This document shows positions 20,450 to 39,967 of a DNA stretch of 64,000 nt, one piece after another. Each line of letters begins with the position of its first letter. Position 1 is the stretch's first letter. Origin of the DNA: Schmidtea polychroa (taxonomy: Eukaryota). The notes under the pieces were generated by a model. The model did no database searches. It saw nothing but the letters and a program-made list of their open reading frames with translations, and was not told the DNA's origin. The position numbers and the translations under genes were made by a program. The stretch spans positions 91,884,001 to 91,948,000 of the forward strand of contig CM097886.1 of assembly GCA_044892525.1 (NCBI GenBank). The letters are read 5' to 3'.

Positions 20450-20935
20450 ATGACGGAATTCGTAGACCAGATACAACAACTAATCAACTTCATAAACATC
20501 GAGAATGACTCCCTTAAAACGCTGACACAAAAGCGAGAAAGAATTAACATCATACTACTCCAAGCAATCGGGCAAACACCAGTCGTCCCCAACCACATGT
20601 TATTAGCCGCAGGACTAAGTCACCCAGATGGGAAGATAAACCCTGAAACCGTGTATCAATGGTATCAAGAGAGATTGAACCACCCAGCATTAAATCTTGA
20701 TTATCAACGTATAAAAGATCCATTAGGTACCATATCAGATACAATCGAGCGAAAAATACAAGAAAAACTGACCCTACTACGAACTTGTCTTGCTTGTAAA
20801 CTTCGTCCTATTCGCGTACTGTTCTTGCCATGTGGACACCTCAGTCACTGCGAAGAATGTGTGAACAACTTAAAACGATGCACGATATGTAAGCATGAGA
20901 TAAAAGAAACTCATATGGTTTATTATGGTGAATGA
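20450..20935 (+). CDS. IAP/MDM2-type C3HC4 RING finger protein (no BIR domain)
   Basis: C-terminal CLACKLRPIRVLFLPCGHLSHCEECVNNLKRCTICK. 133 of 161 aa identical to the copy B homologue (manual count). Confidence 0.88.
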   Translation: MTEFVDQIQQLINFINIENDSLKTLTQKRERINIILLQAIGQTPVVPNHMLLAAGLSHPDGKINPETVYQWYQERLNHPALNLDYQRIKDPLGTISDTIERKIQEKLTLLRTCLACKLRPIRVLFLPCGHLSHCEECVNNLKRCTICKHEIKETHMVYYGE

Positions 20936-21576
20936 ATAGTTAAAGATACAATAACATCTATGAACATTGAATTAATACGGGCGATTGAATGAGAATAAGT
21001 GTAATTGATGTGTGAAATTTTATTAAAGCTTCAATTTTTATTTTTATGACGAATAAAATTTTGTTATGAACTGAGTAATTATGGCTTTTAATTCTATTTT
21101 ATAATTTTTTTTGAATCAAACGAAAAGAAAACCGAACTAACGTGGAATTAGTCCCAATATAGGCTGTAAGGGTACAAACCGAGCCACCTTCGGGCGGTAC
21201 GTTCTATCATACGAAAAACCAATTGGGAGGGGATAACCGATCAACCCAAGTAAGAAGCGTAGGGCGGGGTACCATCGCAAATGATGAAAAATTTCTGCGG
21301 TGTGACTGATCACCATGCCAATGTGGAAATGGATCATCGCGATCGTCGTGCGTTTTGAGCAGGGGGGGGGGGGAAAGGGGAAACACTCTCAAGCGCTAAA
21401 GATCAAGTCGACAAATTAAAAGTAGAGACAGAGAAAATGATAATTCAGGGTAAAAGAGGAAAAGAGAAGTAGAAGCATGCAGAGTGGGGAATATTAAAGC
21501 CGAGCTGTTAAATAGTCCAGCCGGTCAAGGAAAATGAAAACTGAGCTGTGAAAAGTCCAGCCAGTTCGGAGAGATT

Positions 21577-21798
21577 AAGATCGAGTTGTTGAATAGTCCA
21601 ACCGATCAGAAGGAAGAAGATTGAGCTGTTGAATAGTGCCAGCCAGTCGTAAGATCGAGTTGTTGAATAGTCCAACCGATCAGAAGGAAGAAAATTGAGC
21701 TGTTGAATAGTGCCAGCCAGTCGTAAGATCGAGTTGTTGAATAGTCCAACCGATCAGAAGGAAGAAGATTGAGCTGTTGAATAGTGCCAGCCAGTCGT
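21577..21798 (+). repeat. Tandem array of a 74 bp dimeric unit (40+34 bp), 3 units plus degenerate monomers upstream
   Basis: Unit starts at 21577, 21651 and 21725. Both subunits share AAGATYGAGYTGTTGAATAGT. Confidence 0.95.
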
Positions 21799-23135
21799 AA
21801 AGGCCTAGAAAAGCGAGAGATAGCAGTTAAGCTACAATGAGATAATATTTAAATTAATAGTGAAATGGAATATTAAAGCTAGCTAGAAATAAATTGAATG
21901 TAATTACGAAAATTTGAGTTTAGAGAGGAAATAAACGAGCTCGTGGAAAGGATGATAGGATTATAATGAAAAAGGAAGGGGAAGAAGGAAATGAATTAAA
22001 GAGATAATGAGTAAAGAGGAAAGTAACTAACTAATTAAAGGGATCCCAGTAAAGTAGAGAAACTCTACGAAATATTCTTGTTTTTGGTTAAATCGGGAAA
22101 ATACATTTTTATTGGTTCCAGAGTAGAACCGAGCGAGATAATAGTAAATACGAAAAGTAAAATAGCGACATGGCGCAAAAGGATTAGGAAAACGAAGGGG
22201 GGTAATAAGCAGAGACCGACAACGACCTATTTATATTATAATTGATAGCGAATAGATAATTATTACGACTTTATAGATATTTGTTACTACCCCATATAGA
22301 TAATTTAAAATCGACGAAAAATACGGGCTGATGGGAAATTATAACCCGCGGAAAGGATTTCACAAAAGATAGGGAAGCACAAACAGAAACCTAAAAGGTG
22401 TCTGTGTTTGAATGTTGCAGAAAGAATGACGAAGTCGTGTAAGCAGATGCAACACGAGATCATTTTTTCATTTTAGATATCAAATCAAGCCAGCCAATCA
22501 AGCCAATCCAGAACCTGCACAAAAGGAATTCGAGGAAATCGACAATCGACCAAGAATAAATCCATTCAGAACCCGCACCAAGAAACCCAGCAACCGGAAG
22601 ACACCAGAACGGAAGAAGATACAGATAACGACATCTCCAACTTCGAACGAATCACCGATATATTCAGCCTCATAGTATTAGCAGCCATCTGCCAAGGACT
22701 AGCAAATCTCCTCAGAATCTCAGTAGCAGACTCATACAGAATACTTTTCGAAGGAAACGCAATCAGATCCGAACTCGTCCGGTTCAGTAGCCGCTAATTA
22801 CAAAGAAGCGTAAGAAAGGAATCACGGATAAACCCAATCTTAGATCCACAAGTAAGACAGGAGACGTATTATTTTCAGGAGACGAATTACAACAACTCAA
22901 AAGAGGACGATCTATTAAACATCAAAGAGGAATATCACAAGGAGCAAGAAGAACCAATCAAATAACCGTATTTGACCAAGAAAATCTCGAATACACCCCT
23001 AGTCGATCTCGAAGCAGAGAAAGTCTGGCCGACATCACTAATAGTTTAGCAACGTCAACCGAAGAACTATCAGCCCAAAGTTTAGTCACATCATTGGATA
23101 ATTTAAAAGAAACAGACGAATCTAGAACACCAATC

Positions 23136-37973: not shown

Positions 37974-38133
37974 AAAGGGATATGACTGTATATAATTGTA
38001 AAAAGTAAGTATATCTTATGTATATAACAGTACTATATCTTCATATAAGCGCGGTATCAATATTATACAATAACGGGAATCATAAAATAAAATTAAATTT
38101 AGATAAGAGTTGAAAAGTGTATATAAATTAAGA

Positions 38134-38493
38134 ATGGAGCAAGGAAATAACGAAATGAACCACAACACAGTAACCGAAGAATTATGGAAGCAACAATGTG
38201 CCGTATTAGCACAATTAGTGTCTAATTTGCAAGAACAAGGATTGACGATGCAAAAGAACCTAATCGAGAGTATGAACAGAGGATTTAGTTATTTGAAGAT
38301 AATTGAAGACCAGAGGTTAAAAATCGAACAAATGCAAAGAGAAATAGAGAGGGTAACCCAATATAGCCGAAGACAGGAAATCGAATTGGACAGAATGATG
38401 GAGGAAGCAGAACAGACAGAAATAGAAGACTGGTCAGAATGGCTAATGAGTAGAGAGGAGGGCGGACACGAAGCCGACTCTTCCGAACCATAA
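38134..38493 (+). CDS. Short coiled-coil orphan protein with acidic tail
   Basis: First ATG at 38134. A-rich codon usage like the other element ORFs; heptad-like L/I/M pattern. Confidence 0.65.
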   Translation: MEQGNNEMNHNTVTEELWKQQCAVLAQLVSNLQEQGLTMQKNLIESMNRGFSYLKIIEDQRLKIEQMQREIERVTQYSRRQEIELDRMMEEAEQTEIEDWSEWLMSREEGGHEADSSEP

Positions 38494-38578
38494 ACCAAAC
38501 CTAGCTTAAAATGTAAATAATTGTAAATAAAATATCGAACCTGTATCGATAAGAACTATATGTATATATAATTATAGA

Positions 38579-39967
38579 ATGGATAAACGACAAAGAGAAG
38601 AGTTCAGAGAGATTGTCGAACAAGTCCGAAAATCTACAACGATCAGAATACACAAACATGTTATGTGCGGAATATGTGAAAAGTTGTTAAAGGAACCTCA
38701 CCAAACCCAATGTGGATGCAGATTATGTAAGGAATGCATCAGTGAAGCAATAAAGAATAGACCACAGTGGTGCCCGGTGTGTAAAGAGACATTAATATCG
38801 AGTTTAGAAGACACTAACGAGGATAAAGCCGCAGTGAAAGACATGTTAAACACCAATCTGGGATGTAAAAATAACCCATGTGAATGGAAAGGAGTGATAT
38901 GGAAAGTAGTGCAACATATGGGGGAATGTATGTACAGAATCAGCCAGTGTGAAAGGTGCCATAAAACCATTCGAGCAAGCGAAGAAAAAGAGCATCAAAG
39001 CCAGTGTGAAGATAGACTAGAAAGATGCAAACATTGTAGAGAACTAGATACGTGGAAAAATCTCACCAGCAAACATCACAATGTCCAAGAGGAAAAGGTA
39101 TGTGCAGAGTTCAGTGGGGAATTCCCGAACGGATGCGAGGAAGGGAGAATAATAAAAATAGCCCAACACCTAAAGGAATGTGAAAGGAAAAGAATGACAT
39201 GTGTACTCGGTAAATGGGGCTGTCAGAAACTACTACACCGAGGAGAGTTACCACATTATTTAGTAGAAAATGCTTCAACCCACGCAGAAATGTGGTCGAC
39301 TGCGTTACAAGAAAGTGAAGAGAAAGTAAAACAAATGGAGATAGAGATAACATCGTTGAAAGCGTTAGTCAAAGAACTACTAGAAGAAAGAGAAGCGTTC
39401 GAAGAAGCCCGAGCTAACATAAAGATGCAAATAAATCGTATAGAAATCAGTAATAATCAGGCCAAGGAGCTACATCGGAAAATACAGGAAATAAATCTAA
39501 ATGAGATAACCCCAACAGCACCTTATATATGGAAGATAACGGGAGTGAAAGAAAGAATACGGAAAGCCAAAACTGGGGAAGAGACAAGAATAACAAGTCC
39601 TGCATTCCATTCTTGGAAAAATGGGTACAAGATGAAAATGAGGATATATCCCAACGGAGATGGAGCCGGATTGAATACACATTTTTCGATATTTTTTCTA
39701 TTATGTAAAAGGGAATATGACGAAGTAATAGAATGGCCATTCCAGGCAAAAATCGATATCACAATGATGAATGACCAAAGCATCCACGAACAAAGCTTCA
39801 AAACAACGGGAACCCAGCTGTGTTACCGACGACCTACTGATGAGGAAGGAGCAGCATCAGGAGCCCCCACGTTCATCTTACAGCAGAAGGTGGAAGAGAT
39901 GACAAAAAACGACACAATATATATAAAAATGAGAGTGAGAAGGGAAGGGAAGGGTAGAACGGAGTAA
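38579..39967 (+). CDS. traf: Full-length intronless TRAF protein (RING, TRAF zinc fingers, coiled coil, MATH/TRAF-C)
   Basis: RING CGICEKLL...CGCRLCKEC...CPVC; fingers CKNNPCEWKG...HMGEC and CERC...HQSQC; MATH YIWKITG...SPAF...GYKMKMRIYPNGDG...THFSIFF...EWPF. Confidence 0.95.
   Translation: MDKRQREEFREIVEQVRKSTTIRIHKHVMCGICEKLLKEPHQTQCGCRLCKECISEAIKNRPQWCPVCKETLISSLEDTNEDKAAVKDMLNTNLGCKNNPCEWKGVIWKVVQHMGECMYRISQCERCHKTIRASEEKEHQSQCEDRLERCKHCRELDTWKNLTSKHHNVQEEKVCAEFSGEFPNGCEEGRIIKIAQHLKECERKRMTCVLGKWGCQKLLHRGELPHYLVENASTHAEMWSTALQESEEKVKQMEIEITSLKALVKELLEEREAFEEARANIKMQINRIEISNNQAKELHRKIQEINLNEITPTAPYIWKITGVKERIRKAKTGEETRITSPAFHSWKNGYKMKMRIYPNGDGAGLNTHFSIFFLLCKREYDEVIEWPFQAKIDITMMNDQSIHEQSFKTTGTQLCYRRPTDEEGAASGAPTFILQQKVEEMTKNDTIYIKMRVRREGKGRTE

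Follow-up and report, generated by a model that had tools for sequence, protein, structure and literature searches.

What a retroelement gains from carrying relatives of death- and immune-signalling proteins is the question raised by a stretch of 64,000 nucleotides of the Schmidtea polychroa genome (assembly GCA_044892525.1, contig CM097886.1, positions 91,884,001 to 91,948,000; hereafter the window, in whose numbering all coordinates are given). It contains a 30,827-bp Burro-type giant Ty3/gypsy long terminal repeat (LTR) retroelement (16150..46976), whose LTRs, domains and open reading frames (ORFs) are all on the + strand. An earlier note had recognized in it an IAP-type RING, ubiquitin-like domains (UBLs), ankyrins and a TRAF, and had proposed that this cargo is not random and may rewire the survival or immune signalling of the cells in which the element replicates. 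In print, this hypothesis dates back to 2007-2019, and a 2019 review asked for its experimental confirmation. New here are the conservation of the cargo from copy to copy and the selection acting on it, evidence of which we have not found in print, as well as the different subsets of cargo borne by families of one genome, which provide a natural comparison. We found no published dN/dS or functional study of Burro cargo, the text and supplements of Jurka 2007 and Grohme 2018 may bear on this novelty, and a term search of bioRxiv 10.64898/2025.12.11.693146 gave no 'Burro'.

The reverse transcriptase (RT) of the element has many relatives in the 781-Mb genome, the best 150 scored matches being 97-100% identical and many of them lying in a frame of 4,732 codons. 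Fifty copies were taken as every third row of these 150 matches, with 11.95 kb upstream and 8.05 kb downstream of the RT, and a module was counted as present at >50% identity and >50% cover. The RING domain was present in 46 of the 50 copies, UBL1 in 49, UBL2 in 48, UBL3 in 49, a helical domain described below in 49, the two ankyrin clusters in 50 and 48 and the TRAF in 48, and gag, env, protease and integrase in 49 each. The four copies without a RING match may have it outside the fetched stretch. Furthermore, the RING domain was unbroken in 44 copies, the TRAF in 41 and env in 43. Presence among the RT-selected copies is thus not sporadic, each cargo module being found in 46-50 of 50.

Selection was measured by fitting a codon model, module by module, to 27-48 rows of distinct natural copies, from which those interrupted in that module by a stop or frameshift were excluded; the likelihood test is approximate because kappa was fixed in the null, and the model does not include recombination between copies. 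Omega (dN/dS) was 0.135 for the RING, 0.181 for the N-terminus of the RING ORF, 0.046 for the helical domain, 0.081 and 0.067 for the first and second ankyrin clusters and 0.12-0.15 across the TRAF, with RT, RNase H and capsid at 0.02-0.03, and 2dlnL against omega=1 was 111-866 overall and 111-486 for the cargo. A tree-free count of nonsynonymous over synonymous variants (N/S) gave 0.04-0.33 for cargo variants shared by at least two copies and 0.28-0.86 for private ones; shared N/S was below private N/S in every cargo module (in the RING, 0.18 vs 0.74), with Fisher p <0.05 in most modules. Moreover, no variant common to two copies fell on any of the 8 zinc ligands of each RING. All these data support the proposal that the cargo is not random, as modules found in nearly all copies evolve at dN/dS 0.05-0.18 (RT 0.02) and not neutrally. 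Of the three observations that the earlier note had named as refuting its proposal, neutral evolution and sporadic presence were looked for, and neither was seen.

It is therefore hardly tenable to regard the cargo as neutral sequence that hitch-hikes in a young family spreading fast. The copies are indeed young, and the sample is biased to young ones because it was chosen by closeness to the RT of the window, but every module has an omega far below 1, so that the selection tests effectively refute neutrality. In addition, frames and zinc ligands are retained at about 27-45% identity to a sister family (five copies, RT 88-90% identical to the window element), which has the same ORF order and the same RING ORF and TRAF. 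Read from the sequences of the copies, the selection pattern shows cargo ORFs that appear to be translated and useful during replication cycles, and it is silent on their role.

Use to the element should be distinguished from use to the host. That the copies are kept as domesticated survival genes would fit the finding that host TRAFs are required for cell survival, RNAi of two host TRAF genes increasing cell death in S. mediterranea (PMC7586133). However, the selection signal is strongest in variants common to dispersed copies and the private variants of the RING ORF are near neutral (0.74-0.86), Burro RNA increases upon loss of PIWI silencing (PMC8532177), and the 5' LTR (16150..20117, 3,968 bp) and the 3' LTR (43011..46976, 3,966 bp) differ by 6 mismatches and 2 gap columns (99.8% identity), a near identity from which we conclude that the insertion is recent. 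We regard domestication as very unlikely.

Two of the modules are proteins of their own. The TRAF (38579..39967) is a full-length protein of 462 aa encoded downstream of the polyprotein and, as had been noted, complete, with RING, zinc fingers, coiled coil and MATH domain (Pfam E=7.9e-26), the features of the TRAF family; its best PDB matches are TRAF3, TRAF1 and TRAF2. A cysteine in place of a histidine in its RING is common to 14 of 14 aligned TRAF rows (6 host-type, 7 element-borne and 1 unplaced database protein). Outside its own family, the fetched locus that matches it best is that of a host-type TRAF (31.8%, E=2e-76), and in a tree of full-length TRAFs the element proteins group together (94/99) beside the host ones. 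In the alignment, the PD motif that precedes a serine-rich loop in host TRAFs is altered in both element families, and we infer that the receptor-binding groove of the element TRAF is probably changed with respect to host TRAFs. In S. mediterranea, TRAFs have been described as TBK1-regulated wound or immune genes (PMC13563047).

The other separate protein, of 161 aa (20450..20935), carries a C-terminal IAP-type C3HC4 RING after an N-terminal region without Pfam match. The assignment made in the earlier note holds for the RING itself (PF13920, E=1.9e-11), whose best PDB matches are the RINGs of cIAP2 (E=3.1e-11), cIAP1, ML-IAP and XIAP, above MYLIP and MDM2, but the BIR domain of IAPs is absent from this ORF. 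A BIR query from the sister family had no significant match, either in the window (best E=0.01, within env) or in the 50 copies. In the sister family a 392-393-aa ORF follows the TRAF, a BIR-RING IAP in the copy scanned; this IAP had no match in 20 of 20 stretches downstream of the TRAF in the window-element family, where the first ORF after the TRAF is one of 351 aa, with no IAP ORF between. At the linchpin position of the RING most copies have Lys, with Arg in 5 of 45, and in RNF38 a Lys there is among the residues that come next to Arg in activity (PMC12326332). A 'dead RING' reading was not adopted: a role in E2 binding for the cIAP2 residue directly before the second RING cysteine was not found in PMC3172091. 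Complex prediction of a TRAF trimer (residues 215-462) with the RING ORF, run without alignments, gave a score of 0.00 in two runs and is not evidence. A second copy of the same family (53650-64000, running off the window end) has a RING ORF (57789-58274) 83% identical to the first and a longer 74-bp tandem array (58853-59553 vs 21502-21800 in the first).

The modules had been described as four separate ones, which applies to the RING and TRAF ORFs; the UBLs and ankyrins are domains of one gag-env-pol frame of 4,732 codons, in which at least 4,700 codons are open in 20 of the 50 copies. For the UBLs, a beta-grasp fold is supported by structural models in two of three. The AlphaFold models of UBL2 (25626..25889, omega 0.092) and UBL3 (26574..26795, omega 0.063), compared with 48,161 chains, are ubiquitin-like (Z 10.1, rmsd 2.3, 76 aligned residues, and Z 10.2, rmsd 1.8, 69 aligned, respectively). 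UBL1 (25122..25346, omega 0.052) is a weaker case, a probable ubiquitin-like domain that presents the pattern, with low model confidence (block pLDDT 32-52) and about 45% identity retained in the sister family. All three lie under the Pfam cut-offs (best 'ubiquitin' E=0.0039), and none has a C-terminal Gly-Gly after the beta-grasp, the mark of a conjugatable modifier, UBL2 and UBL3 being integral domains. The ankyrins, in clusters at about 35009-35320 and 36150-36419, are real (Pfam Ank_2, E=1.5e-14; three Ank_2 stretches in an unbroken copy), but the IkB affinity attributed to them was not recovered, as no IkB-family protein is among the 60 best of 263 PDB matches.

These results bear on the claim that RING, UBLs, ankyrins and TRAF make up a single cIAP-TRAF-IkB-like circuit directed at TNF-receptor/NF-kB signalling. 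Most copies do carry the modules together, and the best solved relatives of the two separate proteins, cIAP RINGs and TRAF1/2/3, are partners in vertebrates. However, cIAPs bind TRAF2 through the BIR, which the window-element family lacks, no IkB-family protein is among the 60 best ankyrin matches, the UBLs are integral and without Gly-Gly, and module sets differ between families. The NF-kB form of the claim is further weakened because no clear NF-kB homolog has been identified in S. mediterranea, according to a report in which seven divergent RHD genes are nevertheless mentioned (PMC13563047). Our own Rel-homology search of the genome gave no candidates, but its positive control was also silent, so this is not evidence of absence. 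We therefore do not maintain the single circuit, which we judge improbable.

The theme of death control is, in turn, strengthened by the IAP of the sister family and by a domain that the earlier note had overlooked. The helical domain mentioned above (27399..27798, cut by the frameshift in the window copy) lies directly before the env signal sequence and ends in a BH2-like motif. It is probably a highly diverged Bcl-2-like domain. A third giant gypsy family (L172-L173, G000:C1:113803000-113822999), with a 3,029-aa gag-Bcl-2-like-env-pol polyprotein and an RT 50% identical, has at the same position a domain that matches Pfam Bcl-2 with E=2.1e-5, below the cut-off; hhalign relates the two domains with P=66% and E=5.6e-5, and 60 of the 60 PDB matches listed for the third-family profile are Bcl-2-family proteins (best E=7.5e-4). 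The comparison alignment (A5) includes one stand-alone Bcl-2 ORF, and for this reason the profile comparisons may be tilted towards Bcl-2. Whether such a domain would act for or against death is not readable from its sequence.

The position of these domains lends some weight to another explanation, in which the cargo serves the life cycle of the element, in ubiquitin-dependent particle assembly or budding and turnover of polyprotein pieces, with UBLs as spacers and ankyrins tethering chromatin or membrane after the integrase, and host survival is not rewired. In fact, UBLs, Bcl-2-like domain and ankyrins all sit inside the gag-env-pol polyprotein, the UBLs lack Gly-Gly, and linkers are about as constrained as the TRAF. 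This explanation, which we hold as a real minority possibility, accounts poorly for a separate full-length TRAF, for the BIR-RING IAP of the sister family and for a Bcl-2-like domain in three families.

We consider it somewhat probable instead that purifying selection maintains TRAF, IAP-type RING, UBLs, ankyrins and the probable Bcl-2-like domain in this lineage, the likely reason being that several of them dampen stress and death responses, each on its own, in the cell where the element replicates, so that the cargo looks like an interchangeable parts list rather than one pathway. The TRAF would derive from a TRAF gene of a planarian host, acquired before the families separated, and, being separately translated, would enter host TRAF trimers or compete with them, serving as a decoy or a redirected adaptor. 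The BIR-less RING protein might act through RING-RING dimers with IAPs of the host or of the sister element, or as a ligase for the partner of its N-terminal part. Cleavage by the element protease and by signal peptidase would yield a UBL-Bcl-2-like piece, kept at the membrane by the env signal sequence, and proteolysis could also release an ankyrin protein acting as an adaptor. All of these functional steps are inferred. A recurring motif at several domain borders, including those before the UBL region and after the integrase, fits processing by the protease.

Several observations weigh against this independent dampening by several parts. The contrast between shared and private variants is not significant for the RING (p=0.24) and zinc fingers (p=0.78) of the TRAF, and a 119-aa accessory ORF without family match (38134..38493, with a homolog in the sister family; omega 0.149) and the linkers (0.079-0.189) are about as constrained as the cargo; therefore, selection does not single out a death role. 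The folds of UBLs and ankyrins are generic, and no donor can be fixed from the full-length TRAF tree. The assignment to Bcl-2 is an indirect one: a clear BH1 motif is absent, Pfam, Atlas, PDB profile and fold searches did not recover the helical domain as Bcl-2, and the fold matches listed for its low-confidence model include no Bcl-2. Furthermore, the window-element family thrives without a BIR-IAP, and RNAi of BURRO1 gave no improvement of the smedwi-2 phenotype in S. mediterranea, although this experiment addressed a different question (PMC8532177).

A more far-reaching version can be sketched, which we put forward tentatively and with considerable doubt. Planarian Burro-type elements would be infectious retrovirus-like agents with a working anti-death programme. 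Its TRAF would be a decoy, its BIR-less RING would dimerise with the RINGs of host IAP-type ligases and so cause their turnover, and its Bcl-2-like protein would have the env signal peptide as an anchor. Parts would be swapped between families, the one without IAP perhaps borrowing it in trans from its sister, and hundreds of element TRAF and BIR copies would inflate the planarian TRAF counts that have been reported.

The structure of the element, delimited from a 3.97-kb direct repeat found by self-comparison of the window, is that of a member of the Ty3/gypsy group (Metaviridae): LTRs with TG...CA ends, a 4-bp target duplication (TATC, 16146-16149 and 46977-46980), a Gag with CCHC knuckles and the order protease (PR), RT, RNase H (RH), integrase (IN), all of these domains being recognized by Pfam in gypsy order together with a fusion glycoprotein of Monjiviricetes type. 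Compared with an unbroken copy, the long frame is broken here near 27761, at 30289-31319, inside the integrase near 34139 and near 36150. Its first piece (23136..27818) encodes the Gag capsid, the CCHC knuckles, the three UBL-like domains and most of the Bcl-2-like domain up to the frameshift near 27761; the env piece (27832..30315) encodes a mononegavirus-like fusion glycoprotein (PF24664, E=4.7e-72). An extra stretch of about 1 kb between env and protease (30289..31319, no strand assigned), missing from the unbroken copy, is probably an inserted high-copy repeat, its summed contig depth being far above the flanks in 4 of 4 runs. The pol piece (31332..34142) comprises protease, RT, RNase H and the N-terminal part of the integrase, broken within its core; the C-terminal part of the integrase follows with the first ankyrin cluster (34175..36325, frameshift near 36150), and the last piece (36150..37973) holds the second cluster and a tail with hydrophobic segments. 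A dUTPase-like domain between protease and RT, a Burro-type feature, had no match in a Pfam scan alone. Contigs of three runs, guessed to be RNA and possibly DNA, cover 30, 26 and 14 of 30 bins and are no evidence for or against expression.

Downstream of the TRAF, three accessory ORFs of 351, 251 and 213 aa (40161..42769) have no family match above the cut-off. The 213-aa ORF (42128-42769) has hydrophobic stretches at its N-terminus and late in the sequence and varies more between copies than the other two (identity mostly 39-52%, vs 71-96% for the 351-aa ORF); it is a candidate surface or secreted protein that may be under diversifying pressure. A 249-aa ORF in the LTR (18810-19559) is open over its full length in 3 of 3 other copies wholly fetched, at 71-74% identity. 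Outside the element, the window contains a 508-aa intronless ORF with a glycosyltransferase family 90 domain (8753-10279, - strand, E=7.7e-67), an ordinary host-type gene; a 363-aa ORF with CCHC knuckles (634-1725, - strand), probably the gag-like ORF of another retroelement; and, directly after the 3' LTR, inverted repeats of about 200 bp around 2.7 kb (47313-50315), probably a DNA transposon.

Related families differ in what they carry. Besides its IAP, the sister family has a MATH domain between UBL2 and UBL3, and queries with TRAF, UBL and ankyrins had no tblastn match in the stretch fetched for the third family. Homolog searches outside the genome returned 2 and 2 proteins only. Multi-copy Bcl-2 ORFs, one of them above the Pfam cut-off, were also seen at L176 (G000:C1:34770000-34779999) and L179 (G000:C1:247536000-247545999), adjoined by Polinton-like ORFs (a Pox_A32-type ATPase match and, by eye, integrase-, capsid- and long polymerase-like ORFs); death regulators may thus be cargo of other mobile elements in this genome too. 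Of the 150 top MATH matches, about two thirds look element-borne, judged by frame length. Dozens of clustered short MATH matches with open frames of about 180-210 aa lie on G000:C2 at about 105-124 Mb and 1-5 Mb (e.g. L107-L130); those placed in a MATH tree, which leaves out 17 of 33 host-type loci and has unresolved deep branches, form a clade apart from the element TRAFs, and the host MATH expansion is therefore not simply element-derived. Because many TRAF and BIR domain matches in this genome are element-borne, planarian gene-family counts and RNAi designs call for caution.

Should death or immune signalling be suppressed by the cargo, a retroelement would share the strategy of large DNA viruses, and this in an animal whose regeneration needs stem-cell turnover. 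Baculovirus IAPs and the Bcl-2 homologs of poxviruses and herpesviruses are host death regulators carried as accessory genes. Here the carrier is an endogenous retroelement, the function of its cargo is putative, and some of the cargo is fused into the structural polyprotein. With the vertebrate cIAP1/2-TRAF2 pair the element shares an IAP-type C-terminal RING with an aromatic tail residue and a TRAF with RING, zinc fingers, coiled coil and MATH; unlike that pair, its RING protein has no BIR, UBA or CARD, and the PD loop of host TRAFs is changed in its TRAF.

The closest known systems are Burro1-4 and GYPSM1, giant gypsy-like LTR retrotransposons of S. mediterranea (Jurka 2007; Grohme et al. 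2018; PMC6431247), for which MATH_TRAF_C, BIR, ankyrin, BCL2-like and SUMO-like domains and an in-frame env have been listed. Like them, the window element exceeds 30 kb and encodes a single polyprotein (4,732 codons, compared with 4,873 aa in Burro1) with Gag, SUMO/ubiquitin-like domains, PR-RT-RH-IN and ankyrins, a mononegavirus-like env in frame between gag and pol, and MATH/TRAF cargo; for the BCL2-like motif before env, the counterpart here rests on an indirect chain of profiles, direct searches being negative. Unlike Burro1 and GYPSM1, the window-element family lacks a BIR, its polyprotein contains no MATH, and its TRAF is a separate downstream ORF. Compared by description, Burro1 fits the sister family better, with its RT about 90% identical to the window element, MATH in the polyprotein and BIR-RING ORF. 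In the Burro-like element of Dugesia tigrina, MATH/TRAF is likewise in an accessory ORF and not in the polyprotein, but there this ORF is upstream and ORF1 has 5,140 aa (PMC6431247), while here the TRAF is downstream of the polyprotein. The element is thus a member of the known Burro kind, whose cargo list and 'tinkerer' idea, that of meddling with host apoptosis and ubiquitination, are already published, the latter as a possibility worth testing (PMC6431247).

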